From the IMG/VR virus record IMGVR_UViG_3300036762_000188: DNA of 64,000 nucleotides; one strand, given 5' to 3'. Shown one piece after another: positions 5,311 to 59,700 of this stretch. The notes beneath the pieces were generated by a model. It worked only from the letters and a program-made list of their open reading frames with translations. It was not told where the DNA came from and did no database searches. How positions within the stretch are numbered: position 1 is the stretch's first letter; each line of letters begins with the position of its first letter. Made by a program: the position numbers and the translations under genes. The DNA is from a virus (taxonomy: Duplodnaviria; Caudoviricetes).

Positions 5311-7235
5311 TATACTCTCCTAGGTATTTTCCAACCATTAAAATTAGTTCCGCGAGTCATGTTGTAGACATCACCCCTGCCATTATCGTATAGTCCACCT
5401 GGTCTACCACGATCTACTAAGAATGGAGCTCCGTTACGGCTGACAGTACCCCTGGTAACCGGAGCATTTAATACTTCCACTACCTCTATGTGCTCACTAT
5501 CCTCTGCCATCAATGCAGTAGACGCTACAGTAGGCTCATACACTATCATAGATACGCTCCAGGTATCATCAATGCATGGGGATATAAGCAAGTCCGCCTC
5601 TGCCACATCAGGAGCATACGCATTATAGGCGTATATAGATAGTTTATGATCTAAAGGTAACTCATTAGTATGAATGCCAGTCTTACCCTCTCTACTAACC
5701 GCGTCGCTACGTATAATCACCATACCGGTAAGTTCTATACCTAGACGTGCTTCTAGTTCATACTTATCAGCCAGGTATAACCCTACCATCTGATCACCTC
5801 TGACTACACGCTCTACTCCGTCATAGGTCATACTGGCCGGGAATACTCTGGTTATATAATAAGGTACATCTGTAGTATTACCTCTAATGCCTCTAGTCAC
5901 CTTACCTCTATTACGTGGAGATGCTAGAGTTCCGCGGCTACCATATATAACTGCCAGCTTATCCAAGTCCCATGAATTAGGGTCCTCGAAGATAGGCTCA
6001 TATCCTGCATAAGATCTATCACCCTGTCCTACCATATTGTTAAGTTCGTAACTTATGCTATTACGATTATACCAATGCTTTCCGCGGCTAAATACCTGGA
6101 GGTTACGTCTCATTAATCTTATATCAGGAGCGCTTATGCATGTCTCGTTGGAATAGTTCTTCAGTGTGAAGTCTAAACTCTCCTCCATGGATACTTTATC
6201 ATCCGGTATAGGTACTTTCCATACGAATACAGGGAATGTCCATGATGGACGACTATACGTCACTAACCGATTAGCTATGTTAAAGGCGTCTATATCACCT
6301 GCAGGCCTAGTTATAAGCACTTCGAATATATGATACTTAGCCTTCTGCATAACAGAGTCTCCTAGAGATCCTGGTATACAACGCCCTAGAGCAGACGAAT
6401 TACTAGCAGGTAGAAGTTCATTAGGTAGATATATGTTGTACCACCAACCGTCTTCTTTTATGTAATCGATAATCTCTACCCAAGTATCTATCACCTGCCC
6501 TTCTATCAACACATCCCCTACGGTTACATTTGGATTGTAACCGTAAGGTATACGATATGAGTTGGATGAAGTGATTATCACGTAATCACCGGTATCGACG
6601 TCTTCGAATATATCTAGTACTTCTTCAGTATCCCTGGCGTAAGGCATGCCCATAGCCATGTTAATACCCTTCTCTACATGAGCCATAGTAGGGCCGTTGG
6701 TGTAGAGGAAGTATACACCCTCTAGGAACGCCTTATAATTATCTAATGATTTATCTTTATCAAATCCTACCAGCCTACCATATGATTTATAAGCCCAACC
6801 ACCATCGAAGACTACGTCGTTCAGCCATACTGCGTACTGCCAGGACCCATCGGTATTATGGCGTATAGGGAACTTGTAATCACTTATAGGCTTCTGTAAG
6901 CGTAGTACTCCGTCTACGATCTCAAACTCTCTATCTAAGTACAGAGTTTGAGTAGGTAGTACACTACGGTTAGTTATCGTAGCAGCCTGTACGTCTCCTA
7001 CAGAGAACTCAGTGTCAGATATATAATTATGAGACCCCAATAGTAGGAGTGATATCTCTGCGCTATGGTAATCTTGAACGTCCTCTAGGGATATGCCAGA
7101 GGTGCGCTGTAGGAAGTAGCTATACGCCTCTGACAACAGTTTAGTCTCCTGCTCCAATACTCCATCTACGATGTCGGTACTAGAGAAGAATTCTGTCCAA
7201 AAATCAGATATGCCGTACAGGTATGCCATGTTCAT
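5310..7235 (-). CDS. baseplate wedge protein (putative)
   Basis: 641 aa, directly downstream of the baseplate J-like gene. Confidence 0.6.
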   Translation of the reverse strand: MNMAYLYGISDFWTEFFSSTDIVDGVLEQETKLLSEAYSYFLQRTSGISLEDVQDYHSAEISLLLLGSHNYISDTEFSVGDVQAATITNRSVLPTQTLYLDREFEIVDGVLRLQKPISDYKFPIRHNTDGSWQYAVWLNDVVFDGGWAYKSYGRLVGFDKDKSLDNYKAFLEGVYFLYTNGPTMAHVEKGINMAMGMPYARDTEEVLDIFEDVDTGDYVIITSSNSYRIPYGYNPNVTVGDVLIEGQVIDTWVEIIDYIKEDGWWYNIYLPNELLPASNSSALGRCIPGSLGDSVMQKAKYHIFEVLITRPAGDIDAFNIANRLVTYSRPSWTFPVFVWKVPIPDDKVSMEESLDFTLKNYSNETCISAPDIRLMRRNLQVFSRGKHWYNRNSISYELNNMVGQGDRSYAGYEPIFEDPNSWDLDKLAVIYGSRGTLASPRNRGKVTRGIRGNTTDVPYYITRVFPASMTYDGVERVVRGDQMVGLYLADKYELEARLGIELTGMVIIRSDAVSREGKTGIHTNELPLDHKLSIYAYNAYAPDVAEADLLISPCIDDTWSVSMIVYEPTVASTALMAEDSEHIEVVEVLNAPVTRGTVSRNGAPFLVDRGRPGGLYDNGRGDVYNMTRGTNFNGWKIPRRV

Positions 7236-9494: not shown

Positions 9495-10185
9495 ATTCCT
9501 CCAGTAAACCACGTACTTTATTAACCAGTTTACGGTGGGAGTAATTGAGCTTATTAACATCCATACCGTGGACGCTACTCATCTCTTCTTGCGACAAGCC
9601 TTTGAATCGGCTATCCAATAGACTCCTCTCCTCATCAGTAAGACTGCTACGTACGTGGTTCATTCTAGTAGCGTCATCTGAGTACTCCGACGCAGCACCT
9701 AGGTATTCCAAGTTACCCTCATGAACGTCCTGGTATAGGTTAGACTGAAAATCAGTAACCTCCTTCTCCTTCCAGCCTAGTCTGAGAGCCAGCTCTGCAG
9801 GCGTAGGCTCCTTAAGAAGTTCAGACGATAGATCATCATAAGCTTTTTTGTAGTACTTAAATTGACCCTGTTGCTTAGCCTCTGACATACGCACTACGTT
9901 CTGGTACGTATAGTTAAGCCTGGAAGCCTGGGCTATATGGTTAAACACGTGTGTACTTAACTTAGCCCCTTTAGAGGGATCATATGAGTCTATAGCCGAC
10001 GCAGCATGCTTAGCTATCTCCGCCTTCAGGGCGCTATCCGGTAGTGATCCAGCTAGTGCCTTGAACTTCTTCTGCAATATAGGATGTAGAGCCATTACTA
10101 GACGTGTTCGATCTTTTTTAGATCCAGATTTTAGATATTGATCATATATCTCATCTTCTTGGTAGTTAGCCACTATAAACTCCAT
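9469..10185 (-). CDS. sigma70-family RNA polymerase sigma factor-like protein
   Basis: AIDSYDPSKGAKLSTHVFNHI (region 2), EPTPAELALRLGW (region 3), LTDEERSLL..RF.GLSQEEM (region 4). Confidence 0.8.
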   Translation of the reverse strand: MEFIVANYQEDEIYDQYLKSGSKKDRTRLVMALHPILQKKFKALAGSLPDSALKAEIAKHAASAIDSYDPSKGAKLSTHVFNHIAQASRLNYTYQNVVRMSEAKQQGQFKYYKKAYDDLSSELLKEPTPAELALRLGWKEKEVTDFQSNLYQDVHEGNLEYLGAASEYSDDATRMNHVRSSLTDEERSLLDSRFKGLSQEEMSSVHGMDVNKLNYSHRKLVNKVRGLLEEYDGYSRPE

Positions 10186-10813
10186 AATACGCGATGATCA
10201 TAAGGGCTCTTTCTAAGTGACCCTGTATGCTCTTTAAATATTCTAACTCATCAGGTGGTACACCCTTGAGTCTGTTACACAAACCGTCCATCTCTCTATG
10301 ATTAGTGATGGTACTCCATAGAGTGTAGTGATACGGTAGCGGATCTGCAGGTATTACTTTATACCCCAGCAATGACCCGGAGTAAGTATTAGCCAGGAAA
10401 TTCTGATAAGATGCAGCGTCCCCTGTAAGCTCCATGTAAGAGCCTATTATACCACTATCATACGCTCCATACCTAGCACTACTACCGTAGTAACATAGAG
10501 AGCACACTCCATTAGAGGTACACGTACTACCATCCCGGACTCTAACATAATAAGTACCTACTGATAATAGGGATGATACCGTACTCTCAGATATAATCTG
10601 GTTAGTACCCAATTCAATAAGACCTTCTATAGACGTCAGAGTAGATACTCGACGCCCTATCTTGGTATCACAATCCGCTTCTACACATAATATTTTAGGG
10701 GATAGTATCTTTTTTGCAAAGGCTTTTAGCGGTGCATCTGTATCGGGTAAATACTCATAATTGAATACATTCTGCAATACATAATTATTACTATAATCTC
10801 TAGTGCCTATCAT
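10166..10813 (-). CDS. stand-alone RNAP beta' Zn-binding-region-like protein
   Basis: EADCDT ... VRVRDGSTC..NGVCSLCY matches the DCGT ... RSP.TC...GVC..CYG site of beta'. Confidence 0.55.
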   Translation of the reverse strand: MIGTRDYSNNYVLQNVFNYEYLPDTDAPLKAFAKKILSPKILCVEADCDTKIGRRVSTLTSIEGLIELGTNQIISESTVSSLLSVGTYYVRVRDGSTCTSNGVCSLCYYGSSARYGAYDSGIIGSYMELTGDAASYQNFLANTYSGSLLGYKVIPADPLPYHYTLWSTITNHREMDGLCNRLKGVPPDELEYLKSIQGHLERALMIIAYYGVYSG

Positions 10814-19007: not shown

Positions 19008-20618
19008 TTACTCTACGAACGTGTAGTCGCCGGTTAGATACTGATATCCTAAGTTGGCAAATACAACGCTATGGAACCAATCGTCTGGTATATTAGGGTC
19101 TTTTATGTATAGGCGTCTACCTGTCCTAGTCTCCTCCTCGTAGATAGCTAGCGCATCATTCCAAAGCCCTTCTGTTAGATTCCAGTTCGGAGTAGCGAAT
19201 CTGTGAACACCTAACCTCATCTTCATCATAACGTTATCCATGGCCTGTGTACGATCTGCTGCCAGGAAATTACCATTACTATTCCAGTACAATCTGGTAT
19301 TAGAGGTTACGTATTGACACATGATGACCTTATCTCTACCTAGCTTATTGGCCATTAGTTCTGCCTGTAGTACGCCTACTCCGCGGTCAGAAGCTACTAT
19401 ACTAACATTCCACTTCCTGGCTATCTCACACACTCTATCGACTTGATCTAGTATCTTACCCTCTGATAGCTTAGTAGCCTCTAATAGTATCATTCCTCCG
19501 GTAGAATCAATACCTATAACAGACACTACCGTCATGGAGGACTGTGATCCAGATACCGACCAGTCTACTCCTAATACTACGTTGGTTATAGACTTAGCCC
19601 TGCTTAGCATCTCTCCTGATAGATTGGACCCGTCTGGGCTAGGCCATTCAGTCCAATCAGGTACGCAACATCCCTGAGCCTCTCCTAGAGATAACGATGA
19701 TGCCCCTAGGTCCGTGGCTAGTCCGAATATCTCATTGGCTATTAATGTAGGTGTATACATTACACCTTTTCTAGATAAGTCTACTTTAGCGTATAACCTC
19801 TCCCATTTACCAGGCTTGCAGTTTGCCCCGAATATAAGCTGTGGCAGGTGCAGGCCTTGTCTCTTAACTCCGGGTTTGGTTGAAACCCACTGCCCACCGT
19901 TAAATGAGAATGGGCTATGGCAGTAAGGACATACTAGAGTCTTAGGGTTAACACACATCTCCATGCACAAATCGTATTCATTAGGTATGACCCATTTACT
20001 ACACTTATCGCACTTCTTAACGAACTCCATCTGATTAGTAGTCAGCCATAGCTGCTCTAAGGTGTTCGCAGTAGACTTACTAGTCCCGGTGAATATCTGG
20101 TATCCGTAATCTGAAGTGTTAAGAACCTCGGCTATGACGGGTATGATATCTATTGATACATCCTGCACCTCGTCTATACATAATAGATCCGCAGTGATAC
20201 CACGCACCCTATCGGCGTCCGCACCTGTCTGCGCGTATGACAGGATGACTTCTGACTTATTATTGTAGCTCTTATGGAATACGTTACCTACGTCTTTACT
20301 ATTAACAAAGAACTTCTTGATGAACTTAGAATCGCGGAATATATCTAGGTACCCTACAGAAAAGCGTTTAGTCTGAGTCTGGGACGGAGATATGTATAGG
20401 CTGGTAAACCAAGGCTGAGAGATAGATCCTATATTTATACGTCCGCCTAATCCTAGAGATTTACCTACCTGTCTAGCAGCCTTAACCACTAGCACCTCTG
20501 GGTACATGTCATATATAAGACGTTGAGGATCATAGTCAGGTTCAAATCTTACTCTGGAACCTTTGAAGTCCAGGATCGCCTGTGCGTACTTAGACCCTGT
20601 AGCTTTTATAGTGGGCAT
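19008..20618 (-). CDS. terminase large subunit
   Basis: Walker A VVKAARQVGKS, Walker B LLCIDEVQD, GTSK, CxxC...CxxC, nuclease VLGVDW and DDWFHS. Confidence 0.9.
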   Translation of the reverse strand: MPTIKATGSKYAQAILDFKGSRVRFEPDYDPQRLIYDMYPEVLVVKAARQVGKSLGLGGRINIGSISQPWFTSLYISPSQTQTKRFSVGYLDIFRDSKFIKKFFVNSKDVGNVFHKSYNNKSEVILSYAQTGADADRVRGITADLLCIDEVQDVSIDIIPVIAEVLNTSDYGYQIFTGTSKSTANTLEQLWLTTNQMEFVKKCDKCSKWVIPNEYDLCMEMCVNPKTLVCPYCHSPFSFNGGQWVSTKPGVKRQGLHLPQLIFGANCKPGKWERLYAKVDLSRKGVMYTPTLIANEIFGLATDLGASSLSLGEAQGCCVPDWTEWPSPDGSNLSGEMLSRAKSITNVVLGVDWSVSGSQSSMTVVSVIGIDSTGGMILLEATKLSEGKILDQVDRVCEIARKWNVSIVASDRGVGVLQAELMANKLGRDKVIMCQYVTSNTRLYWNSNGNFLAADRTQAMDNVMMKMRLGVHRFATPNWNLTEGLWNDALAIYEEETRTGRRLYIKDPNIPDDWFHSVVFANLGYQYLTGDYTFVE

Positions 20619-23859: not shown

Positions 23860-24854
23860 TTATCTTTGAGCCTACACGTACGTACCACCCGTTTAAGGCG
23901 GCGTGGGCCATGGAGCTGGCAGAAGAACACTCTATCAGTCTATACTGGGATAAGCATCAGCTTGAGTTTACGGATGACATCCGTCAGTATCACTCTAAGG
24001 ATGGCCTTAAGACTGCTAACGTCAGCCATGAGTCTAACAAGAACATGCTGGCTAAAAATCTTAGCGTATTCACCCAGAGTGATGTAGCGGTAGGAGAGTT
24101 GTACTGCCGACTGCTACCTTACGTTAAGAACAATGAGATACGCAATTGGTTCATGGTGGCTGCTGCCCGTGAATCTACGCACCAGAGATGTTACGCTGCT
24201 GCGGTGGAGGAGTTAGGGTTCCCCGAGTCTACATGGGGTGAGTTCATGGAGTATAAAGCCATGAGCGATAAGATCGATCTTATTAGTGCTGCTAGTGAAG
24301 ATCTATCTAAGCCTATAAACTTCGCTAAGACTCTAGCACAACTTCTGTTGGCTGAGGGTATTGCCTTATTCGGAGCCTTCGCTAGTATGCTCAATCTTAA
24401 GCGCTTCGGGCTTATGATGGGTGTTAACAAGATTAACGAATGGTCACTTCGAGATGAAGAGCGTCACGTATACGGTAACATACTCGCGTTGAACGACGTC
24501 AAGTCTTACCTAACCGATGTAGAGTTGGTAGAGTTAAATGAGTTCATAGTAGAGGCAGTTACTCGTTATCGTGCAGCTGAGCATAAGTTCATCGAGCTAG
24601 CATACGAGATGGGTCCTCAGGAAGGTATGACTGAGGGAGACATGAAGGACTACATAGATTACCTATGTGATTTACGATTAGAGCGTCTAGGGCTAGATCC
24701 TATCTACGGCACTAAAGATAACCCTTTAGAGTGGATGGATTGGTTACTAACAGGGCGTAAGCACGTTAACTTCTTTGAGAATCGTGTATCTCAGTATGAT
24801 CACTTAGGATTGATAGGTGGTGTAGAATACGATAAGTACGCATCTTATCTATAA
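23856..24854 (+). CDS. nrdB: ribonucleotide reductase class Ia, beta subunit
   Basis: Diiron ligands QSD, ESTH with radical Tyr at H+4, EG..LFGAF, RDEERH; NFFE.RV..Y. Confidence 0.93.
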   Translation: MIIFEPTRTYHPFKAAWAMELAEEHSISLYWDKHQLEFTDDIRQYHSKDGLKTANVSHESNKNMLAKNLSVFTQSDVAVGELYCRLLPYVKNNEIRNWFMVAAARESTHQRCYAAAVEELGFPESTWGEFMEYKAMSDKIDLISAASEDLSKPINFAKTLAQLLLAEGIALFGAFASMLNLKRFGLMMGVNKINEWSLRDEERHVYGNILALNDVKSYLTDVELVELNEFIVEAVTRYRAAEHKFIELAYEMGPQEGMTEGDMKDYIDYLCDLRLERLGLDPIYGTKDNPLEWMDWLLTGRKHVNFFENRVSQYDHLGLIGGVEYDKYASYL

Positions 24855-24942
24855 GGGTACCCCCTCTTACTTAAAAAGAGGGGTTTAGTTATAAACATAT
24901 TGTAAGGGAACTTACGATCTCCAATATTTAAAGGAACATTAA

Positions 24943-26034
24943 ATGTCTAATACTATCGTTAATATCCCAGGCCGTGAATCACAAACTCTTACTGGTATGG
25001 TCCTGAGCGAGAAGGAAGTTCGCGACGCGTACGCAGGTGTGATCGACCTCGGTTCTTACGTAGCCACTACAACTAAATCTGGAGATGATACTATTATCAC
25101 CTTCGCTAACCGTACTGGCACTAAAGGTGCTGATACTATCGTTAATATCCCTGGTCGTGAGTCTCAGACCCTTACTGGTATGGTCTTGAGCGAGAAAGAC
25201 GTCCGTGACGCGTACGCAGGTGTAATTGACCTAGGCTCTTACGTAGCTACAACTACTACTTCAGGCGGTAACACTGTTATTACCTTCGCTAACCGTACTG
25301 GCACTAAAGGTGCTGATACTATCGTTAATATCCCAGGCCGAGAATCCCAGACTCTTACGGGTATGGTCCTGAGTGAGAAAGACGTCCGCGATGCTTACGC
25401 AGGTGTGATTGACTTAGGCTCTTACGTAGCTACAACTACTACTTCAGGCGGTAACACTGTTATTACCTTCGCTAACCGTACTGGTACTAAGGGTGCCACT
25501 GCAGTGATTATTGATGGTGTCCAGGTCCTGTCTACTCCGGTAGATATGGATGAAGAGGATGTGCTGGATATCCTTGAGTCGGGCGCCTTTGGCGATGTCA
25601 CTGACTACGAGTATACTACTCAGGAAGTAGGTAATACTACCTTCATGACTTTCACCCCAGTTATGGGTGAACTCGAGGCTCTTTTAAATAAGAACAAGCC
25701 TGTAGATTTGAAGGCCCTATTACTGCAAGGGCTAGTTGATAGTGACTCTTCAGACTTAGAGGAAGATGAGGGTGAAGACTATTATTGTTTTGATGAGTTT
25801 GATGAGTTTGATGAAGGCGAGGAGGACGAAGACGAGGTAACCTCTACCGAAGTTATCATCGACGGTATGACGCCTCGTGTTCTACAGGGCATCATAATGG
25901 ATGCTAGTATGCTGATCGCAGCTTACCGTGACACTATTGACTTAAGCCAGTATGTAGCAGAAGAGCGTGTGCAGGGCAGTGTACTTAAGGTATATTTTAC
26001 AAAACGCCAAGGTGCTAAAGGTGCCCTGGCGTAA
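24943..26034 (+). CDS. poly-ubiquitin-like precursor (tandem PRTRC protein C-like Ubl domains)
   Basis: Three 61-aa repeats ending NRTGTKG, a degenerate 4th unit, an acidic linker and a 5th unit ending KRQGAKG-ALA; upstream of E2, JAB and E1 genes. Confidence 0.8.
   Translation: MSNTIVNIPGRESQTLTGMVLSEKEVRDAYAGVIDLGSYVATTTKSGDDTIITFANRTGTKGADTIVNIPGRESQTLTGMVLSEKDVRDAYAGVIDLGSYVATTTTSGGNTVITFANRTGTKGADTIVNIPGRESQTLTGMVLSEKDVRDAYAGVIDLGSYVATTTTSGGNTVITFANRTGTKGATAVIIDGVQVLSTPVDMDEEDVLDILESGAFGDVTDYEYTTQEVGNTTFMTFTPVMGELEALLNKNKPVDLKALLLQGLVDSDSSDLEEDEGEDYYCFDEFDEFDEGEEDEDEVTSTEVIIDGMTPRVLQGIIMDASMLIAAYRDTIDLSQYVAEERVQGSVLKVYFTKRQGAKGALA
24946..25494 (+). repeat. 183-bp tandem coding repeat x3
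   Basis: Units about 24946-25128, 25129-25311 and 25312-25494; units 2 and 3 differ only synonymously. Confidence 0.95.
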
Positions 26035-26040
26035 TTAAAT

Positions 26041-26062
26041 AAGGGGCTTCGGCCCCTTTTTT
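26041..26062 (+). terminator. Rho-independent terminator after the poly-Ubl gene
   Basis: GGGGC-TTCG-GCCCC stem followed by TTTTTT. Confidence 0.85.
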
Positions 26063-26079
26063 ATTAAGGGTATTTTAAG

Positions 26080-26601
26080 ATGGATTTTAGATCTTCTTGC
26101 ATGGCAAGAATACGCACTCTATTAGAAGAGTACGGTTCTACTAACGGATTACACCTACCAATCGGAGCTATAAATAGCACTTTAGGTTATATAGGGCCTT
26201 CAGGAGGCGTCTCTAATAATAATAATAGATTAATTTACTTAATGGTGGGCGCCTTGACAGAACCTGCCAGTTATAACCACTGGCTTTTAAATGGCAGATC
26301 TATACCTATATATCTAGAGCATAACGCTAGTGTATGTATAGGCGTAGTGAGTGGGTATAGAGAACAGTTAATGGAGCAGCTCGAAAGGCTACATGGGGCT
26401 ACTGTATCTATCGTACACATGAGTGATACAGTGTCTACTGTAAGGATTAGATTTCAAGGAGGAACCCTTGAAGGCGTTATGGCTTCTTTAGTGCAGTTAC
26501 GACAGATTATATCTGATATGGTTCTTAGTGGCAGGGCGTATGGATCTACTATACCTAACGTAAGTTATATGCTAGAGGAGGGTTCACATGGAACTTCTTG
26601 A
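26080..26601 (+). CDS. hypothetical protein in the Ubl cassette
   Basis: 173 aa between poly-Ubl and E2. Confidence 0.6.
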   Translation: MDFRSSCMARIRTLLEEYGSTNGLHLPIGAINSTLGYIGPSGGVSNNNNRLIYLMVGALTEPASYNHWLLNGRSIPIYLEHNASVCIGVVSGYREQLMEQLERLHGATVSIVHMSDTVSTVRIRFQGGTLEGVMASLVQLRQIISDMVLSGRAYGSTIPNVSYMLEEGSHGTS

Positions 26602-26860
26602 GGCTATACTCGCCGTAGAGTCTAATGTAGCCGCGTCCCCTTTAGACGCAGCCGCAGAAGAGCTAATGACATTAGAAGCCAGGGTCCCTGATATCAGCTC
26701 TATAAGTGAGGTACTGCGCGTATTAGAGCGTGGCAATGACCTGCTTAACACTATCAATAGAGGTCCAGATCGTTACTGGCATAGCACATATAATAGTGTG
26801 TTCAACTTACAAAGGATATTATCCGTACCAACTTGTTCAGCAGGAGTGATTTATGTCTAG
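26588..26860 (+). CDS. hypothetical protein in the Ubl cassette
   Basis: 90 aa, GAGGAGG RBS, overlaps neighbours. Confidence 0.6.
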   Translation: MELLEAILAVESNVAASPLDAAAEELMTLEARVPDISSISEVLRVLERGNDLLNTINRGPDRYWHSTYNSVFNLQRILSVPTCSAGVIYV

Positions 26861-27485
26861 TTTAATTATAAGCATGGACCGTAAGGATATCGTAACCGTA
26901 AAGGATGCTACAGGCAGCCACTTGAAAACTATGTCGGTAACGTCATTTATAAACCTGCTTAAAGCCCTTAATCCAGAGGCCGTGGATTCCGTAGGGCGCC
27001 CTATATCCCTTCCTACCAGTATACTTACCATAGCAGGTTCCCCTGCTCTATATAGTATATCTATGTACTTTCCCGAAAAAGAGGCTGTTGTACGGTGTAG
27101 CGGCACTAATTATAACATCGTACTCCCTAATATAGTGCTAGAGATAGACCTGACCGAAGGTCCTGGATGCTGGACTATCACTAGAACTAGATGGATAATG
27201 ACTGACAAGAGCCGGGTTGATTATAAACCTGAGTACGGTAAAGTTCTAGCTATGCCTAACGTGTATAGCGGCGGCAGTATGTGCTACGGCGGTAACGCAC
27301 TACCCGGCAGGATCTACCATGATTGGACTATACTAGATAGCCTGTATCATGATGTATTACTGAAATCTCCATTCAACAATGACCTAGGTGTACCTGGAGT
27401 TGGTGCAAGTGCCGACGACTGGTTAAAAACCCTTAGCGATCGCCGACTTAACGGTGATAAATTCCCATATGAAAGATTCTTCTGA
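26853..27485 (+). CDS. prokaryotic E2 family D-like conjugating enzyme (PRTRC protein B-like)
   Basis: LAMPNVYSGGSMCYGGN ... SPFNNDL fits the P.NVY..G.ICWG ... FN.DL signature; candidate catalytic Cys present. Confidence 0.75.
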   Translation: MSSLIISMDRKDIVTVKDATGSHLKTMSVTSFINLLKALNPEAVDSVGRPISLPTSILTIAGSPALYSISMYFPEKEAVVRCSGTNYNIVLPNIVLEIDLTEGPGCWTITRTRWIMTDKSRVDYKPEYGKVLAMPNVYSGGSMCYGGNALPGRIYHDWTILDSLYHDVLLKSPFNNDLGVPGVGASADDWLKTLSDRRLNGDKFPYERFF

Positions 27486-27492
27486 GGCTAAT

Positions 27493-28566
27493 ATGTCTAT
27501 TATCATAAACCCTATTACTACCGTGTTACTTAATCATACAGAAGTGGATGACCCTAAGTACAATCACTTCATGTTCAAATATGTGCTGGAGAAGGACCTG
27601 ACGTTAACTAGTACGTCTGTCATGACCGGTGGACGGTTTATCAAGAAGTACATAGCCAACCTGGCCGGTAAGAAACTACCTGCCGACGAGATACAGCCAC
27701 TAGTTAACGGGGTTAAGATCCCTATCCTCATCATGCATCAGATCCATAAGTTCTTCATTGATGTTATGAAATTGCATTCTGGCAGTGAAGCGCAAGCTTT
27801 TGTGGTCATGAGAGACGGTGAGTACAAGATATTAATCCCTGAGCAGACAGTAAGCGGGGCTGCTGTAACCTATGACCTGACTAAGGAATTATTACCGGGC
27901 GATATTATAGTTATGGATATACACTCCCATAACTCTATGGCTGCGTTCTGGTCCGGTACAGATAACCGTGATGATAGTAAGAATACATGGATCTCTGGAG
28001 TATTCGGCAAGGTAAATACTAAGCTGGAGTATAAGTTCCGCTTCAGTGATGCTACAGGGTCTCATTATGATCTTGACATTAAGGACGTCTTTGAAGAGGC
28101 TGCCGAGGTATCGATACCTGCAGAGTGGGTATCTAATGTAAAAAAGTCGGTACTCTCACGAGCGCCTATAAGCAATTACCCCGGGTTATACCGAGGCCCT
28201 TCGAAGCCGAAGAAGTGGAAGCAGAGCCCGGGCTCTTTAGAATGGGTTGGTGGAACAGACTATTCAGAGGATGATCTATCCTTAGATACAATGATCACCT
28301 CTCTAGAAGATGCCTTAGTGGAGGACGAGTTGGTAGATATAATGACAGACATGATCGACCCGTATGCAGGGGATCGCCTAATGGTTAGTAAGGTACTGTC
28401 TAGTCTGGAAAACGCCTTCAGTGGTAACGGTAATATAGACGTATCGTTCCCTATAGGTGCCGAGAACCTATTCCATAAAACTCACACTGTATTATCAGGA
28501 TATGGTACCGATAACAGTACCATACTGACGTCACTAGCTACCGTAAAGGGTATGTACAATGTTTGA
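27493..28566 (+). CDS. JAB/MPN+ metallopeptidase (deubiquitinase-like, PRTRC protein A-like)
   Basis: E...P.Q.VS and DIHSHNSMAAFWSGTDNRDD (HxH-x7-S-x2-D); GAGG RBS before ATG 27493. Confidence 0.9.
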   Translation: MSIIINPITTVLLNHTEVDDPKYNHFMFKYVLEKDLTLTSTSVMTGGRFIKKYIANLAGKKLPADEIQPLVNGVKIPILIMHQIHKFFIDVMKLHSGSEAQAFVVMRDGEYKILIPEQTVSGAAVTYDLTKELLPGDIIVMDIHSHNSMAAFWSGTDNRDDSKNTWISGVFGKVNTKLEYKFRFSDATGSHYDLDIKDVFEEAAEVSIPAEWVSNVKKSVLSRAPISNYPGLYRGPSKPKKWKQSPGSLEWVGGTDYSEDDLSLDTMITSLEDALVEDELVDIMTDMIDPYAGDRLMVSKVLSSLENAFSGNGNIDVSFPIGAENLFHKTHTVLSGYGTDNSTILTSLATVKGMYNV

Positions 28567-29464
28567 GAGAAAATTTGAAAGCATAATATCTACAGTAGTA
28601 GTTATTGGATGCGGAGGTACTGGCTCTCGAGCCATACCTTTGATGGTGCAGATACTTAAGAATAGCCCTCGGGCGTTAGCGCCTCGCTTAGTACTTATCG
28701 ATGATGACGTAGTGGAGCATAAGAACTTAGCACGTCAGAATTTTATCAACCAGGATGTTGGCAGAAGTAAGGCAGAGGTATTGGCCGAGAGGTATTCTGT
28801 TGCAATGGACTTCCCTATTGTATCCAATAAAGCTCGTATATCTGGTAACAATCTCGTAAATGTAGTAGATCAAGCTATGCATGGAAGAGGTTGGCCTTCT
28901 ATCCGTGGTACACATAGTCCTATATTCATACTATGTGTAGATACCATGGAGGCTCGCATGGATATACTAAAACAGTTGCCGGGTGGATCTATTGTAATAG
29001 AGGCTGGTAACGAGGATACCTTCGGTAACGTCACGGTGTTTGACGTAAGTGAATTCCGAGGTGCTAACGAAGCAACTCCATTCTATGGAACTGTGGAGAT
29101 ACCTGTAATACCAGCCCCGGTAGCACGATACGAACATGCATTAAAAAACCCGTCGGTTAAAACGGGTTCCTGTGCAGATTTAGATCAATCTGCTGCCATC
29201 AACAACTTGATGGCCGCAGGGATAAACACTATACTCCAGAATATATCGTATGGTATACCTCTAAGATATCGTACTAAATTCTATGATCTGGCAGGTAGTG
29301 ATCATACAGAGATAATGAACGTACACTGGTATAATCAGGAGTATAAGTGTGCTGGTATAAAAACTGCGATGCCAATGGCACATACGGCTAGGGCTGATGC
29401 TCTGAATCGAGACTTAGCAGCAGCCCGTAAGATACCTAAAGAACTACTTGCTGCTATAGCCTAG
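28559..29464 (+). CDS. ThiF/E1-family Ubl-activating enzyme
   Basis: VVVIGCGGTGS, DDDVVEHKNLARQNF, DVGRSKAEVLAERY, CVD...AR, GSCADLDQ...INN. Confidence 0.92.
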   Translation: MFERKFESIISTVVVIGCGGTGSRAIPLMVQILKNSPRALAPRLVLIDDDVVEHKNLARQNFINQDVGRSKAEVLAERYSVAMDFPIVSNKARISGNNLVNVVDQAMHGRGWPSIRGTHSPIFILCVDTMEARMDILKQLPGGSIVIEAGNEDTFGNVTVFDVSEFRGANEATPFYGTVEIPVIPAPVARYEHALKNPSVKTGSCADLDQSAAINNLMAAGINTILQNISYGIPLRYRTKFYDLAGSDHTEIMNVHWYNQEYKCAGIKTAMPMAHTARADALNRDLAAARKIPKELLAAIA

Positions 29465-29727
29465 TAGTAAGTAGGCTTTTGCATAGCCTGCATTCCAAGT
29501 CCTGCTACCGACCCAGCTCCGTAACCCTTTAGTACTGTACTCCCTGCTACACGCAGGGCTGATACTAGTGCTTTAGGGTCTTTTTTAGCTATAGCAGCTA
29601 ATAGGGCGGGGGCGGCTAAACCTGATGCAGAAGCAACTCCTATCGCACCACCTGTAAGAGCGGCAACTCCGTAGTCAGGGTCGAACGCCTTCTTCTCTAG
29701 CATTCTAGCTTTTTCCAGTAAAGACAT
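29461..29727 (-). CDS. small Gly/Ala-rich virion-associated protein with K-x-A motif
   Basis: LEKKA followed by hydrophobic Gly-zipper segments. Confidence 0.55.
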   Translation of the reverse strand: MSLLEKARMLEKKAFDPDYGVAALTGGAIGVASASGLAAPALLAAIAKKDPKALVSALRVAGSTVLKGYGAGSVAGLGMQAMQKPTYY

Positions 29728-30154
29728 TTTTCTTCTCCATTAATATAGTTAACATCCTGCGGAATCCGAATACCGCCACGAAAATACCTATGATTATCCA
29801 GGTATACCAATCCGGTACTCCGGTCTTTAGAAATTCGAAGCCGGCCTTGACATTATCTTGAGTCTGAGGGAAAAATGAAGCTACGAATGGCGCTAGGAAA
29901 ACTAGCATAACGAATTCATCCTTCCAGGAATTCTCCTGACTCTTAACTGCTAGCATATCTAGATCATTCTGGGCGTCTGCGTCTCTCTGCATACGCACGA
30001 TAGAGGCATTGGCCTCTGCCTCTATAAGTCTTATTCTAGCATCTACTTCAGCAGCTTTAATGTTAAGCTTCTGCTCCTCAGTCATAGTCTTACGATCCTG
30101 CCATTTACCCACCAGTTCAGTAACCGGTGATATAAGAGCTGACCATATACTCAT
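29705..30154 (-). CDS. holin-like protein (3TM, GTA-holin type)
   Basis: Coiled coil, SWKDEF motif, two C-terminal TM helices, basic tail. Confidence 0.7.
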   Translation of the reverse strand: MSIWSALISPVTELVGKWQDRKTMTEEQKLNIKAAEVDARIRLIEAEANASIVRMQRDADAQNDLDMLAVKSQENSWKDEFVMLVFLAPFVASFFPQTQDNVKAGFEFLKTGVPDWYTWIIIGIFVAVFGFRRMLTILMEKKNVFTGKS

Positions 30155-40712: not shown

Positions 40713-41708
40713 TCAGCTCAATCGAGGGCTGATCTTACCGATCACGAAGGCTTTCGTGTTACCGATACCTACGCCTACTGCCTCATAAGTACGGAAGCTA
40801 ATCATATCAGCTTCAGCCTTCAAGAACACAGTCGGTTCTTGTAGAGAGTAGAATTGGCCCAGATACTCTTCCGGAGCAAACGCAACAACTAGGTTACCCT
40901 TGTTAGTACGTGACACTGCGGTGCCATCCAAGAAGTCACTTGACAAGATGTCAGACTTGTTAGAGGTCACGATGTCTAGCCCGTAGAAACCTTCCATGCT
41001 ACCAGTATCAAAGTGGCGAGCTGCAGTAGCATCACCAAGCTGAGTAGCTGGTTCACGTAGGATGGCTAGGTACAATTGATGAGACATCAATACCTTACCA
41101 GGCTTCTGGAAGTCATCTACCAGGAACTGAACTAGCTGCATTACTTTATCAGTAACGCGAGTACCAGTCAAAGACAGATCAGTTAGATAAGGCTTCTGTG
41201 CAGTTTCCAGAGGGAAATCACCGCTAGCACCAGTGTTACGTGCATTAAAGATTGAACCTAGAGCAGACACGAAGTTACTGTCTTCTGCTTTCTGAATATC
41301 CTTAACGCTGTTCTCTTGCAGGATCTGACGGATGTCAGTCTTGTAAGTAGCTAGCTCGAACTTAGACTTAGTGAATTCAGCAGATTCAATCTTACTGAAA
41401 CCTACTTCATAACGAGTACCTTTGAAGTAGCGCAGTTCGCTCTTACCGCTCAAGTCGATAGTAGCAGCTACTGAGTCAGGTTCTTTCTCGATGATAACAC
41501 GAGGTTGATCATCAAGACCGCGGTCTAGATCGCTAGAGTTAACCATTACAGGAGTGAAGATTTTACGAGTAAAACCGTCTTCACGTAATTTTTGACGTAC
41601 GAATGCAGACATAGCCGCAGACGCTTCTTTAGTCATGCCTTTATCGATCTTGTCGATGAAAGCTGAGTTCATGTATTGAACATTGACTGTTTCAGTGTTG
41701 TAATCCAT
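40713..41708 (-). CDS. major capsid protein
   Basis: 331 aa downstream of protease, scaffold and decoration genes; strongly biased codons; terminator follows. Confidence 0.8.
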   Translation of the reverse strand: MDYNTETVNVQYMNSAFIDKIDKGMTKEASAAMSAFVRQKLREDGFTRKIFTPVMVNSSDLDRGLDDQPRVIIEKEPDSVAATIDLSGKSELRYFKGTRYEVGFSKIESAEFTKSKFELATYKTDIRQILQENSVKDIQKAEDSNFVSALGSIFNARNTGASGDFPLETAQKPYLTDLSLTGTRVTDKVMQLVQFLVDDFQKPGKVLMSHQLYLAILREPATQLGDATAARHFDTGSMEGFYGLDIVTSNKSDILSSDFLDGTAVSRTNKGNLVVAFAPEEYLGQFYSLQEPTVFLKAEADMISFRTYEAVGVGIGNTKAFVIGKISPRLS

Positions 41709-50107: not shown

Positions 50108-51919
50108 TTAGTACTTACCATCTGCACCATCCCCGAAGTTACGACCCATAATATAAGCCGCTATAGGATCTGTAGAAGATATCTCCGCAGAATGTCCTTC
50201 AGCTACACCAGTCTTTAGAGTACGCGCCTGGTGGCCCAATGTTAATTTAGAAATCCAATTATCATCGTAGAATTTGACAGATTTAAGACCTGGCACTATA
50301 GCCTCTGTGGTAAGACCCGATTTACTGATCTTAACTTCCTTGACGCCGTGATTAAGTAAGTACTCTATATGGTTATTATCCATCACAGTACCTGGTGTTA
50401 ACTGCAGGTACTGCTGTGCTAACTTACTACCTATAGAGTTCTTAACGTCTACAGTGGCAGTGTCTTTAGTCAAAGCATCTTGTATAGCATTTACCGTAAG
50501 TACCTGTCCTGATAGATAATCCGTGTCACCCGGGTTTTTAACTCGCACGTGCTTGATTACATTCTTGGCTACTATTTCAAAATGTCTTTTATCTAAAAAG
50601 TTACCAGAATCCTCGTAGATGCGGTTCATCTCCTCTGATATGTATTTACGCCCGTCACCGGTACCGCGTAAAGATACTAACTCACGAGGATCCGTAGTAC
50701 CGCCAGATAACTGGTCGCCGATACGTATAGTGTCTCCTACACTAACTCTTAGGCCTCTAGTGCGCGGTACGAAGTGCTCTACTCCGTTAACGAATACCTT
50801 GTTATCTTTAAGAGAAGTCTCGGTTATATCATTGACGGTGCCATCTACTTTGGATATAGTCGCCTTATCCAAAAACTTCTGAGGGTTAGTAAGCAGGTTA
50901 CTGACTAGGTCGAACGGGTTTGACTTCTTACCAGCCTTAGCATCATGCTTAGTACCTAGTACCATCTGAGTCAGTACTTCTGATACAGACTGAGACGCTA
51001 TCACACCGACGTTCTCTCCTATATCAGGAAGATGTCCCCGGGAATCTAATCCGTAGCACTTCTGACACACACCGTCTTTAATCGTACAGGTCATAGGAGA
51101 GCGTACTACAACAGTCTTCTTACTACCCTTAAGATCGCTCCAACGCGCCTCATCTATTAATACGTTAGTACCAGCTTCATATCTACCTATGATACCACGC
51201 TTATCATCTATCTTAACAGGTATACCATTGGAAGTACCACAGTCATGAGTGATAACCACCTCTCTCATAAGATTAGGAGTGATCTGCTTAAACATATCTC
51301 CAGGCTTAGATGTAGCTAACTGTGCCGCTACAGTATTACCCCTACCCCAATAACTCATAGCCAGCTGCTGTGCTGGAGTAAGTCCCTCACTATAAGATTT
51401 AGTGATAGGTAGTGGTATAGGAGTCTTATCTATACGCTTGGATATTAACGGAGTGGACGTACCCTGCATTAATTGGTTAGGGTTACCACGAGCTCCTGTC
51501 TGTGCCATCAAAGCTGCTGTACTACCGTTATTAAGTAAATGACTTAAGTTCTGTGTATTTAGCAGTTTCTCATAGTCATGAGTTATCTCGTTAATACGGT
51601 CATCTTTCTTAGAGCGTTCCATGTCTGAGGATTCTACTCCGTCTATCTTGGAACTGAATTCCTTAATAAGTGCTGCGCGATCTTCTGAGTCGTTCAAGTA
51701 GTCTGCTAGAGGTGTAGAGAACCCGTTTACAGTAGCTTGATGAAAAAACTCTTTAGATATGTTAGATATAGTTGTACCAGCGTCTTTACCACCGTGGGTG
51801 ATGATAGATGCCATCAAGTCCTTAACACCGCCTTTGTCTAACTCTACCTTAGGATCGTAGTAAGGCTTAACTGAATCAGGCAGCATATGCTTGATCTTTA
51901 TAGATCCTGCAGTAATCAT
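50108..51919 (-). CDS. rpoC: phage multisubunit RNA polymerase, beta' C-terminal part
   Basis: GARGN, SYSEGLT, T.KPG, DCGT, RSPMTC...GVCQKCYG, GENVGVIASQSVSE..TQM...TKH, HFEIV. Confidence 0.9.
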   Translation of the reverse strand: MITAGSIKIKHMLPDSVKPYYDPKVELDKGGVKDLMASIITHGGKDAGTTISNISKEFFHQATVNGFSTPLADYLNDSEDRAALIKEFSSKIDGVESSDMERSKKDDRINEITHDYEKLLNTQNLSHLLNNGSTAALMAQTGARGNPNQLMQGTSTPLISKRIDKTPIPLPITKSYSEGLTPAQQLAMSYWGRGNTVAAQLATSKPGDMFKQITPNLMREVVITHDCGTSNGIPVKIDDKRGIIGRYEAGTNVLIDEARWSDLKGSKKTVVVRSPMTCTIKDGVCQKCYGLDSRGHLPDIGENVGVIASQSVSEVLTQMVLGTKHDAKAGKKSNPFDLVSNLLTNPQKFLDKATISKVDGTVNDITETSLKDNKVFVNGVEHFVPRTRGLRVSVGDTIRIGDQLSGGTTDPRELVSLRGTGDGRKYISEEMNRIYEDSGNFLDKRHFEIVAKNVIKHVRVKNPGDTDYLSGQVLTVNAIQDALTKDTATVDVKNSIGSKLAQQYLQLTPGTVMDNNHIEYLLNHGVKEVKISKSGLTTEAIVPGLKSVKFYDDNWISKLTLGHQARTLKTGVAEGHSAEISSTDPIAAYIMGRNFGDGADGKY

Positions 51920-56324: not shown

Positions 56325-56732
56325 ATGTTAAACATGCTAATGGAAGTACACCGTATCAAGGCCTCTATGGCAGTTACCTTCCCGCAGGGGGTGAACGATA
56401 TGAATAAGTTCGCTCATCTCGTGATTAACGAGGAGGTAATACCGGATCGTAAGATTCGAGATACACAGCGTAAGGTAGATGCCCTTAACCACCTGCTAGA
56501 TGCGTGTAGGATTAAGAATGGGAAGGAGTTGAAGATGAGCCAGACTATGTGGGCTCATGTCAACTCGGAAAAGCCTAAGGGCTTAACTATGATACTTAGA
56601 AAATTGGTTTGTGAACACTTGGGGGTGAAGAGCCACCCAATCACTCCTAAACGGATACTCGAGCTATACGCAGAGTATCCGGAGGATCGGGTGATCTATA
56701 ACGTAGCCCGAGCTATCACGCTGCTCGGGTGA
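56325..56732 (+). CDS. hypothetical protein
   Basis: ATG at 56325 after GGGGA; converges on and overlaps the RNAP stop. Confidence 0.6.
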   Translation: MLNMLMEVHRIKASMAVTFPQGVNDMNKFAHLVINEEVIPDRKIRDTQRKVDALNHLLDACRIKNGKELKMSQTMWAHVNSEKPKGLTMILRKLVCEHLGVKSHPITPKRILELYAEYPEDRVIYNVARAITLLG

Positions 56733-59700
56733 TTTGAACCGGAGTATCCTCGGAGATGGTACCGGCTGCTAACGCGGCTAGTACCTCTTCCTCGGATGAA
56801 AAGACTACGGTCTTTTTATCTGACGGACGGGTCATGTACACAGATCCTAGAATAGCCTCATGACCAGGGGCGTACATAGGACTGCCGAATCCCTTACGGG
56901 CGTCGTGCAGATGGTTAGAAGGCAACAGTTTCTCGTTAGCCTCTTTTATAGCCTCTGGAGTAACCGGTACGTGCATACTCAAGGCATCACCATCATAATC
57001 CGCTGCATATCCTGGTAGATGCAATATGTTAAGACCTATAGTCTTACCTGTAGTAGGTATAGGCTTAAGGGCTAGAATGTTAGTTTTCATAAGAGTAGGA
57101 GCACGATTAAGTATAATCGGTATTTCCTTGATAACCTTATTGAAACTACTTACTGCAGCCATATTACGATCTTCACACGCTTTTTTAGCTGCAGCAGGAT
57201 TGTACCCCTTCTGAGCTAGGTCACGCTTGATATGCATATCGTACATAGTCCACAGCTGTTCCGCCGGGATCTTAACTTCATCAAACCCTAGGTCTGGCGC
57301 TGCGTAAATAGTACCGCGGCCTGACATATCCTGCTTACGACTCAGTAGCTTAGACTGGAAGTAACCGGTCTTAGGACCACCGTCACCGCCTATCTGTTTC
57401 ATCAGGCCTTTAAGATGTTTATTCTTAAAGCGAACCGGCTCTCCCGCAGCCATAATAGCCTTGGCAGCAGAGTAGGTATCAGCACGTGCCTGTTGCAGAG
57501 TAGGGAAGCTATGATCGTATAGATCTTTATTCTTATCTACCCCATCGTTAACCAGATATAGATCCTGGTACAGACTGTTAACGTCCGCTACTACTGCACG
57601 CCCCTCATTGACAGATATAGGACGCATCACCGGAGGTATAACTGGTATATTACGTAGCAGTACTGCGCTACTTAAATCCTTAAACCCCTGTTTATGCAAT
57701 CCATGTAAAGCCTTGATACGCTTGATGATATTATTCTTAGTGGATACAGCCTTGGTAACCTCTAGCTCTCGCGTAAGGGCCGCTATCTCCGCCTCAGGGT
57801 CGATATCATCCAGCATCTGCTTAAAGGCTTCCCCGCCTATAACAGCTTCATCACTAGCCGCCTTAGTCATACCGGCGTTAACGTGGATAGAACGTACTAG
57901 CTTCTCAGTATCACTATCGAGTATATCGAAGTTACCGGAACCTTTACGCTTAACCATGTACTTACCGGATACTATGTTATCGTACTCAGCCTGTTTAAGA
58001 CCTAGTATGCTAATAACCGTGGGCTCTAACACCGGAGATACTATAGACTCTGATAGAGGTAAGTGTGACCACTTAGTACCGTCTATACCACCGGTCATAC
58101 CGATATCGAATAGGCCACCTTTACTGGTACGTGCGTCACTGCCCTGAAGCATCTTAGTGTTCCTCAAGGCGCCACTGCTCATAGACAGTATCTTCTCGTC
58201 TGTCAGTGGTGCTAGCGTAAGTCTACCGTCTCGCTGAGACACTTCTATACCACTACCTTTCAGATAGTCGAAGAACTTCTGAGTGGCGAAGGTAGTAGAA
58301 GGTTTAGGTAGAGGCTTACCTCGTATAAACTTATCCCAGTAGTCGCCTTGCTGTGATAGTTTACCACCCTCCGCCTTAATAGTAGCCATTTCCTTAAGGT
58401 TACTACGGGCGTTAGATCCTAGAAGTCCTAAGAACTCCATATATCCTACTGCCTTAGCACCCTCTTCACCACCCTTAGTAGGCTGCCCGACGTTATCATA
58501 CTTCCCTGTACTACGGGCGAAGTAGTTAGCGTCTACCGTCTTATCTAACTTAACGATATACTGAGGTCCTGCGAATACCTTACTACCTATAGTCTTACCT
58601 GTCTTAGGATCATAGATCTCCTCGGTATCAGATAGTCCGCGGTCAGCTAGCTCTTTCTTAAGCGTGCCGATGTTGCTCGCGTTCTCATAGTTCTTAACCA
58701 TGTAAGGCTTACCGTCGTGCTTAGCGATCTTAGCAGCTACGGTCTCCATGATCTGGCCTAGGTTAATACGCGAGGTAACAGACGCAGGGTTAAATAGTAC
58801 GTCTACAGGCTTACCCGTCTCTCTACTATGAGGCATCTCATGATCATCTAGGATCAGAGATACGATACCCTTACCGCCGTGGAAGTTGGTTATCTTATCC
58901 CCTTCGACTAGACTCTTCTCAGAACGTACTATAATACGTATGTTCTTACCGGTCTTGTCTATGTCTACTATCTCACCTAACTCCTCGTGATCCCATATAA
59001 GGCTAGCGTCGCGATATTTATTTACCAGTGTCTTATGCAGACGTCCTAGTAGCATATCCATCTCGCTCACTTCCTTTTCTTCCAGGATAGGCCAGATTAT
59101 ATCACCCTTATGCAGTACACGGCCTTTAGCCGGAGCTCCATCCCTGGCCAACCCTTGTAGTTGCTGTGGAGTATACTTACGACCGAATTGACCTCGGAAG
59201 GTCTCAAGGTCTAGTACAGTCTTATCCCCTGCACTATAATCAAACTTGTAAGCGTGATTACTTATCATAGACTCCGCTGCAGAGCGGCTTAGCACTACGG
59301 CGTCTTCGTGGTTAAACCCTTCATACGGCATATAGGCGATATGTAGGTTCTTACCTAAAGCCAGTACACCATCCTTGGTATAATTATTGTCTGCTATAGT
59401 CTGCCCGGCCTTTACACTATCTCCCACCTTAAGATGTGTAGGCTCGTCGTCGTGAAATCCCTTCATGTTAAAAGGTAGGTTATCCACTAGACTTACTTCA
59501 TGGTTACCTTCCGCTCCGCGTATAGTAACCTTCTTAGGTTCTACTTTAACCACCACGCCGTCTACCGGTGACTTAGTGGTGAATACACGTGCTAGACTCT
59601 CTGAGAATGAACGGCCTTTACTATCCACGGTCTGTACTAAAGGAGCCTCACGATCCCGTAAACTCAGAGTCTGTGGAATAGCTTTACCCGCCATGGTTAA

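Follow-up and report, generated by a model that had tools for sequence, protein, structure and literature searches.

The open reading frame at positions 24943-26034 of the window (the whole 64,000-nt stretch of DNA analysed here) probably encodes a polyubiquitin-style precursor of a phage ubiquitin-like (Ubl) modifier from the Prok_Ub / PRTRC protein C family; we put the probability of this reading at about 65%. In the mechanism that we propose, the 38.9-kDa chain would be translated as beads on a string, and the JAB peptidase of the same operon would recognise the flexible ...G-x-K-G tail with which a unit ends and cut after its Gly. The cuts would yield three near-identical modifiers (~6.3-6.4 kDa), a 19.5-kDa product consisting of a decayed unit, an acidic linker and unit 5, and a short Ala-Leu-Ala cap; the masses computed for cuts after the K-G tails are 6.42, 6.29, 6.29 and 19.5 kDa. 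The ThiF-type E1 would then adenylate each free Gly carboxylate, the E2-like protein would accept it on its Cys, and it would finally be joined to its targets.

Anatomy of the repeat gene and its operon

A preliminary description of this stretch had noted three 61-aa units that each end in NRTGTKG and run directly into Ala, a diverged fourth unit without the TKG end and, after an acidic linker, a fifth unit that ends in KRQGAKG and precedes Ala-Leu-Ala and a stop codon. The translation bears this layout out in full (Table 1). The first three units occupy residues 2-62, 63-123 and 124-184, and Tandem Repeats Finder reports a period of 183 with 3.0 copies, 88% matches and 0 indels at 24950-25496. 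The unit profile scores five stretches of the protein, the decayed unit 4 included. A repeat anatomy of this kind lies far outside what chance would give. Between units 2 and 3 the protein does not change, and the DNA differs by 16 synonymous and 0 non-synonymous substitutions (dN 0, dS 0.44), and unit 1 differs from both with dN 0.06 and dS 0.69-0.70; purifying selection is shown here, at the level of the sequences, to act on each unit.

Table 1 Features of the poly-Ubl gene, its operon and its flanks (positions in the window)
Feature	Position	Strand	Detail
Terminator-like hairpin	24861..24883	+	between the ribonucleotide reductase small-subunit gene (on its 3' side) and the poly-Ubl gene
Ribosome-binding site	24930..24935	+	AAAGGA, 7 nt 5' of ATG; from sequence
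Poly-Ubl precursor ORF	24943..26034	+	P0003, 363 aa
Unit 1	24943..25128	+	aa 1-62; C-terminal NRTGTKG
Unit 2	25129..25311	+	aa 63-123; C-terminal NRTGTKG; same protein as unit 3
Unit 3	25312..25494	+	aa 124-184; C-terminal NRTGTKG
Unit 4	25495..25677	+	aa 185-245; decayed beta-grasp without G-x-K-G tail
Acidic linker	25678..25839	+	aa 246-299; D+E = 22/54
Unit 5	25840..26022	+	aa 300-360; C-terminal KRQGAKG; nearest to relatives' last-position unit class
Cap Ala-Leu-Ala and stop codon	26023..26034	+	3 residues
Hairpin and T run	26041..26058	+	G+C-rich; immediately 3' of the poly-Ubl stop codon
Operon gene X	26080..26601	+	173 aa; no known family
Operon gene Y	26588..26860	+	90 aa; no known family
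E2-like protein	26853..27485	+	210 aa; invariant Cys144
JAB/JAMM peptidase	27454..28566	+	370 aa; motif E112, H157-S-H159, S167, D170
E1-like ThiF-family adenylating enzyme	28559..29464	+	301 aa; GCGGTG nucleotide loop, S204-C205-A206

The genes of the operon follow one another on the + strand in the order Ubl, X, Y, E2-like, JAB, ThiF-type E1. The JAB matches Prok-JAB at 25.6 bits (cut-off 25) and PRTRC_A at E 4.5e-16, and the E1 matches ThiF at 50.4 bits and PRTRC_ThiF at E 2.7e-18. The window E2-like protein matches Prok-E2_D weakly (E 0.12); its counterparts in related operons reach 4.4e-4, 5.8e-4 and 2.4e-11 against Prok-E2_D and 1.1e-7 against PRTRC_B. Catalytic residues were judged on alignments of six operons, in which the JAMM motif (E112, H157-S-H159, S167, D170) is complete and invariant across the six JAB counterparts, Cys144 of the E2-like protein and S204-C205-A206 of the E1 are likewise invariant, and the nucleotide loop of the E1 is intact. 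An Atlas search with gene X gave no score above 0.82 and no lead.

Hairpins like the one just 3' of the poly-Ubl stop codon are found at the equivalent place in two related loci (L007 and L001). Together the flanking hairpins would fit expression of the tag above that of its enzymes. A scan for sigma-70 promoters was at background, with 13 found and 12.8 expected.

The window is phage DNA, with a large terminase gene at 19008-20618 and a major head protein gene at 40713-41708, and it also carries two large genes that match multisubunit RNA polymerase of the beta type. Ribonucleotide reductase genes lie directly upstream of the poly-Ubl gene.

Fold of the units and a model of the JAB-tail complex

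Prediction of the structure of each unit had been proposed in the preliminary description, and it returns beta-grasp beads with free tails, with unit 4 as a decayed beta-grasp of low pLDDT. In the AlphaFold2 model of the full-length protein (mean pLDDT 73, pTM 0.26), the units form separate beads with high pLDDT per unit, and packing between the units is not predicted. Disorder is predicted for the tails, for the linker and for the beginning of unit 4: pLDDT lies below 50 over residues 181-202, is ~60 over residues 201-240 of unit 4, and falls below 50 over residues 241-289, where the acidic linker is mostly predicted to be disordered. The model of a single unit, built with 54 aligned units, reaches a pLDDT of 89.7 and consists of two strands, a helix, two further strands and a free six-residue tail.

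In an exhaustive structural comparison (VIA-align), the solved folds nearest to the single unit are MoaD, ubiquitin-fold proteins, UBX, ISG15, SUMO, FAT10, Urm1 and ThiS, with Z values of 3.4-4.9 that are modest, as expected for 61 residues, rmsd of 2.4-3.8 Å and 49-60 of the 61 residues aligned; beta-grasp proteins dominate the list. An ESM Atlas cluster, 12% of whose members have Prok_Ub, aligns with the single unit at a TM of 0.62, and the Atlas search also lists G5-linked ubiquitin-like domains. Foldseek with the single unit found no match at E <0.001. With the whole model it returned POTRA arrays and linear ubiquitin chains, which reflect the tandem layout and not the fold and were set aside, as was a PHROGs match of the precursor to GroES (6e-5, with no passing stretch), which is noise. 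The models support the assignment of the units as small beta-grasp ubiquitin-like domains with a disordered tail, and, taken with the C-terminal tails of one-unit relatives, they show the beta-grasp with a conserved Gly at the mature C-terminus that characterises Prok_Ub / PRTRC_C.

We modelled JAB residues 20-240 together with one unit and Zn, alongside three controls. The JAB-unit complex scores 0.71 and the best control 0.01; the complex passes a mark that is reached by 58 of 80 solved complexes and by 2 of 110 mismatched pairs. The runs share at least 44% of contacts, and the pLDDT of the partner is at least 75. In this model, unit residues 55-61 contact E112, H157, H159, S167 and D170 of the JAB. 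JAMM-ubiquitin complexes like the modelled one have already been solved, and the pass may echo them. A related bacterial JAB, BilC, trims its Ubl after the conserved Gly and cuts a Ubl-GFP fusion (PMC10557695). On the modelled complex, the operon JAB would be the obvious candidate for the cutting enzyme.

Relatives and family assignment

Megablast of positions 24000-30000 against the phage collection gave zero matches. At the protein level, the relatives in that collection come from three Vibrio phages only (39-47% identity). These phages, D69, D181 and D148 (about 187 kb), are the closest named relatives; their syntenic cassette lies 3' of the reductase genes, separated from them by several small genes, and their three-unit gene ends in TGTKG followed by INYSK. 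Metagenomes contribute 17 proteins, 231-368 aa long, with between three and five units, and a scan of IMG/VR gave one locus, a 172-kb contig that carries this operon together with a five-unit gene. A word-index search with one unit over proteins of 33-107 aa found no match; one-unit forms were recovered by an exhaustive profile search of 1.84 billion representatives, which returned 65 proteins. The pattern F[ATS][NA]RTGTKG, which covers this narrow motif type alone, found no relative over 185,579 species genomes. The one-unit alignment is too variable for building a scan pattern.

By number of units, the 68 family representatives fall into 31 with one, 12 with two, 18 with three, 2 with four and 5 with five. 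Genes of one, three, four and five units all head an operon of the order Ubl, X, Y, E2-like, JAB, E1. The one-, four- and five-unit operons come from otherwise unrelated contigs, and one of them adjoins a terminase gene.

The disordered tail is the best-conserved part of every intact unit. One-unit relatives have the invariant columns F, G, K and G, with the G-x-K-G tail at the C-terminus, and those of like operon type mostly end exactly at ...KG. Among all 68 representatives, the C-terminal end is exactly ...KG in 37, and the tails of the remainder are mostly 1-5 unconserved residues (A, EA, C, N, K, ILA, IFLF). A motif-based count finds the G-x-K-G tail at 74 of 74 internal junctions; the motif is absent from unit 4 of the window and from the third unit of one relative (P0006), both of which are decayed as whole units. 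The residue after the Gly is Ala at 29 of the 74 internal junctions and otherwise N, Q, S, M, T, H or W. The preliminary description had taken KG|A as the junction, a definition that has to be given up: since the residue after the Gly varies, the putative cut site is defined by the ...G-x-K-G tail.

The pattern of change within the window gene recurs among its relatives. Units 2 and 4 of L003 are 100% identical in protein and 83% in DNA, with a dS of 1.9, and the units of L009, L008 and L006 behave like them; in independent multi-unit genes the units are 86-100% identical in protein and synonymous sites are saturated. The three-unit phage form, which is common, has its units in conserved positional classes joined by conserved linkers. 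Unit 5 of the window groups with the last-position class of the relatives, a class before which an acidic linker always stands.

Neither the window protein nor its single units match Prok_Ub (PF14454) or PRTRC_C (TIGR03738). A five-unit relative (P0004) scores 24.6 bits against Prok_Ub (E 2.3e-5), just under the cut-off of 25. The window-family profile (A1) retrieves two proteins, P0037 (E 1.5e-11) and P0047 (E 2.6e-7), of which the first scores 102.5 bits against Prok_Ub over five stretches (cut-off 25) and the second 43.5 bits against Prok_Ub (cut-off 25) and 71.5 bits against PRTRC_C (cut-off 45.95). Prok_Ub is also matched by 6 of 29 one-unit relatives (best E 9.7e-13), and the unit profile and the one-unit profile match with 99.4% probability. 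Because P0037 and P0047 pass the cut-offs and the window protein is without a match, the window family would join Prok_Ub / PRTRC_C via intermediates only. The Ubl gene has beside it the E2-like protein with a conserved Cys, the JAB and the ThiF-type E1 that mark such cassettes, and the window proteins stay below the NCBIfam equivalog cut-offs (59 against 101.8 bits for PRTRC_A and 66.2 against 144.75 for PRTRC_ThiF). As judged from these sequence comparisons, the phage operon is related to the PRTRC cassette without being its equivalog.

We take the PRTRC cassette (NCBIfam TIGR03735-03738) to be the same as the type 6d operon that Iyer et al. described in 2006 (PMC1779556). In their description, a single small Ubl whose C-terminal Gly is conserved is encoded together with an alpha-helical protein, an E2-like protein, an E1 and a JAB that has an N-terminal domain (PMC1779556). 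The window operon has in common with PRTRC / 6d the small beta-grasp Ubl with its conserved C-terminal Gly, the E2-like protein with a conserved Cys (Prok-E2_D / PRTRC_B), the N-terminally extended JAB (PRTRC_A), the compact E1 (PRTRC_ThiF) and extra uncharacterised genes between the Ubl and the E2-like gene. There are also differences: (i) PRTRC is named after a ParB-related component, and no ParB-like match was found among the operon genes scanned. (ii) The downstream conserved His of 6d E2-like proteins is not conserved among the aligned E2-like proteins of the phage group. (iii) PRTRC cassettes reside on plasmids and integrative elements (ICEs), whereas the window operon belongs to large lytic-type phages. 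(iv) Type 6d, as described, has a single small Ubl, whereas the phage family has a head-to-tail array of up to five units.

In PADLOC, the E1 of the window matches CBASS-type E1-E2 models only and the other operon genes are without a match, in a release from which Bil models are possibly absent.

Proposed processing of the chain, alternatives and known systems

An E1 requires a free C-terminal carboxylate, so an internal tail would be useless unless the chain is cut. The tail is the best-conserved part of the unit and the true C-terminus in one-unit genes, and the units are under polyubiquitin-like selection, which argues that the chain would be cut after each ...K-G. Features of the polyubiquitin type are found: units arranged head to tail, an activation tail on each intact one and a putatively removable C-terminal cap. 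The likeness to eukaryotic polyubiquitin genes drawn in the preliminary description has gained from the relatives, which keep the tail on the counted internal units and carry variable short caps. Apart from KG|A as the definition of the site, its interpretation is supported in part, by the fold, the tails, the caps, the complete JAMM motif and the complex model. The two distinct tags that it expected are plausible as well, since the last unit with its acidic extension belongs to a positional class that is both distinct and conserved. As for the JAB, one-unit relatives that already end in ...KG still keep its gene, so its conserved role may be deconjugation and not precursor processing.

The positional classes and conserved linkers of the three-unit form would fit a one-piece protein as well. 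The alternative that best survives, which we regard as unlikely, is that the protein is an uncut multi-domain modifier: the ALA cap alone would be removed and the five-domain chain activated at its last Gly as one large tag. ISG15 and FAT10 are multi-domain tags that act uncut, and unit 4 and the acidic linker of the window protein are clearly not freed singly. Bacterial precedents are documented: Ubl3 proteins from Bil and Bub operons, which have three beta-grasp domains, work without being cut and even assemble into filaments (PMC11601603). However, several observations speak for cutting and against a single large tag: (i) The internal units keep the free C-terminal tail of the one-unit relatives at every counted junction. 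(ii) Near-identical unit proteins with saturated synonymous sites are the pattern of polyubiquitin, unlike that of ISG15-like domains. (iii) Packing between units, with a pTM of 0.26, is not predicted. (iv) Unit number ranges from one to five within one operon type.

With MoaD and ThiS among the closest solved folds and an E1 of the compact ThiF type, the units could also be read as sulfur carriers or acyl-adenylate carriers whose C-terminal Gly the ThiF-like enzyme would adenylate and thiocarboxylate for biosynthesis, with the JAB as trimming enzyme, and JAB-trimmed sulfur carriers are known from QbsE/QbsD and CysO/Mec. We think this very improbable. An E2-like protein whose Cys is invariant is a constant member of the operon, and no sulfurtransferase, rhodanese or biosynthetic gene is seen in it; the tail is ...K-G, as against the Gly-Gly of known carriers, and we know of no multi-copy carrier precursor. 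That the gene encodes a repetitive structural or decoy protein that is never activated, and stands beside the enzymes by chance or for some other cause, is scarcely credible: the whole-model fold matches do include tandem-domain arrays such as POTRA repeats, but distant phages have the gene at the head of this enzyme operon irrespective of its unit number, conservation within each unit is highest in the disordered tail, and the modelled JAB engages that tail.

The preferred reading, a precursor that is cut into separate modifiers, has its closest parallel in the eukaryotic polyubiquitin genes (UBB/UBC and yeast UBI4). Both consist of small beta-grasp repeats placed head to tail, in which the protein is kept identical and synonymous sites diverge; both have a short unconserved cap after the last Gly, and in both a dedicated monomer-releasing peptidase is expected. 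However, the sequence relationship between the units is undetectable beyond the fold. Eukaryotic tails end in ...R-G-G and the phage tails in ...T-K-G, and the phage units, unlike eukaryotic ubiquitin, have 61 aa and four strands. The phage precursor departs from polyubiquitin further in its decayed unit, its acidic linker and its divergent last unit. The peptidases differ in kind as well, a UBP/UCH-type Cys protease for polyubiquitin and a candidate JAMM metalloenzyme for the phage.

Among bacterial systems, the polyUbl of operon type 6e has already been called reminiscent of polyubiquitin by Iyer et al. (PMC1779556). The 6e / Bub polyUbl proteins and the Ubl3 proteins of Type II Bil and Bub operons resemble the phage family in having 2-3 tandem beta-grasp domains within an operon for E1, E2 and JAB. 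The Ubl3 proteins of Bil and Bub have been studied as whole uncut proteins, which form dimers and Ca2+-dependent filaments (PMC11601603). On the phage side, where the tails were compared, each intact unit has the full tail and is near-identical to its neighbours, and the enzymes are encoded by separate genes, whereas those bacterial operons have JAB-E1 or E2-E1 fusions. Type II BilABCD (PMC10557695) shares the gene order Ubl, E2, JAB, E1. In its Ubl, the conserved Gly is followed by at most 9 unconserved residues, and the JAB pre-processes the Ubl (PMC10557695). Unlike the phage operon, Type II BilABCD serves bacteria as a defence against phages; its E1 is multidomain and its E2 belongs to the CEHH type. 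The phage operon has two extra genes relative to it.

A full-text search of the literature found no paper that describes a phage polyubiquitin-like family. Tandem Ubl domains in bacterial operons (2006, type 6e) and JAB pre-processing are established. What is new lies in the combination of a phage carrier, the 6d/PRTRC lineage and near-identical head-to-tail units that each have a full activation tail. A broader statement, to which we give slightly less than even odds, is that large phages run Ubl tagging via a true polyubiquitin-type precursor, which would supply minimal 61-aa tags and a second, acidic-tailed tag in a fixed ratio. If true, polyubiquitin-style genes would have a first example beyond eukaryotes and their viruses, and one of independent origin: with identical units, selection at the protein level, tail junctions and a disposable cap in a tag gene, the hallmarks of polyubiquitin would have arisen as an architecture at least twice.

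Bacterial ubiquitin-like conjugation has so far been studied as an anti-phage defence, whereas here a phage carries the whole kit. If the reading is true, the phage would put the tags on its own proteins or on those of the host, possibly as a counter to Bil-type host defences, and the targets, once found, would show what the phage gains from protein tagging. The system is small and tractable, with a 61-aa tag, three separate enzyme genes and a cassette present in Vibrio phages that bear isolate names (D69, D181 and D148). We know of no PRTRC system with a known function, and the PRTRC / 6d cassette has been without one since 2006; the phage family offers a way in.

Tail lysine and the genes between tag and E2-like genes

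In alignments A1 and A3 of the unit tails, the lysine adjoining the terminal glycine (...G-x-K-G) does not vary among the aligned one-unit forms, and in multi-unit proteins at least 90% of the units retain it. In the predicted complex model of JAB with one unit, this penultimate lysine is placed against the JAMM residues of the peptidase. It may be the main residue recognized by JAB and E1, or an acceptor in chain formation.

Genes X and Y belong to no known family, and in operons of this type the pair always separates the tag gene from the gene for the E2-like protein. In relatives, the product of gene Y is anywhere from 83 to 528 aa long. Both genes are candidates for a role in target recognition or an E3-like function.

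Features of the window and of related operons
Feature	Locus	Coordinates	Strand	Remarks
E1 gene	L001 (Vibrio phage D69, OZ195729.1)	9539-10552		337-codon open frame
181-aa ORF	L007 (172-kb IMG/VR phage)	9824-10369		inserted between JAB and E1 genes
Gene X	window	26080-26601
Gene Y	window	26588-26860
RNA polymerase beta-type gene, large	window	50108-51919	-	PHROGs match
RNA polymerase beta-type gene, large	window	56716-61248	-	PHROGs match
Strong G+C-rich hairpin with T run	window	26041-26058		directly 3' of poly-Ubl stop codon
Similar hairpin	L007	about 7108-7135		same place
Similar hairpin	L001	about 6803-6835		same place

Related operons and their annotation

The annotated E1 of phage D69 (251 aa) lacks the nucleotide-binding loop because the annotation begins at an internal Met. 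The full frame remains open and contains GCGGTG, so that the deposited start is probably wrong. A 90-nt minus-strand "hypothetical protein" annotated within this gene is probably spurious.

The ORF inserted in the L007 operon has no counterpart in that of the window and, judging from its sequence, resembles a homing endonuclease of the HNH/AP2 type. In L008, a cassette with four units lies on the 216-kb contig NGLF01000003.1 of a bacterial assembly (NCBI GCA_002140695.1), with a ParA-like gene nearby; this contig could represent a phage-plasmid or some other large episome.

Transcription

Both large minus-strand genes have matches to beta-type families of phage multisubunit RNA polymerases (E 1.5e-16 to 2.6e-69). 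The phage probably relies on a polymerase of its own for transcription, and this would account for a sigma-70 promoter scan that stayed at background. The position of the hairpin after the poly-Ubl stop codon is common to the window and two distant relatives (L007 and L001), and this hairpin may work by attenuation, setting the ratio of tag to enzymes at a high level.
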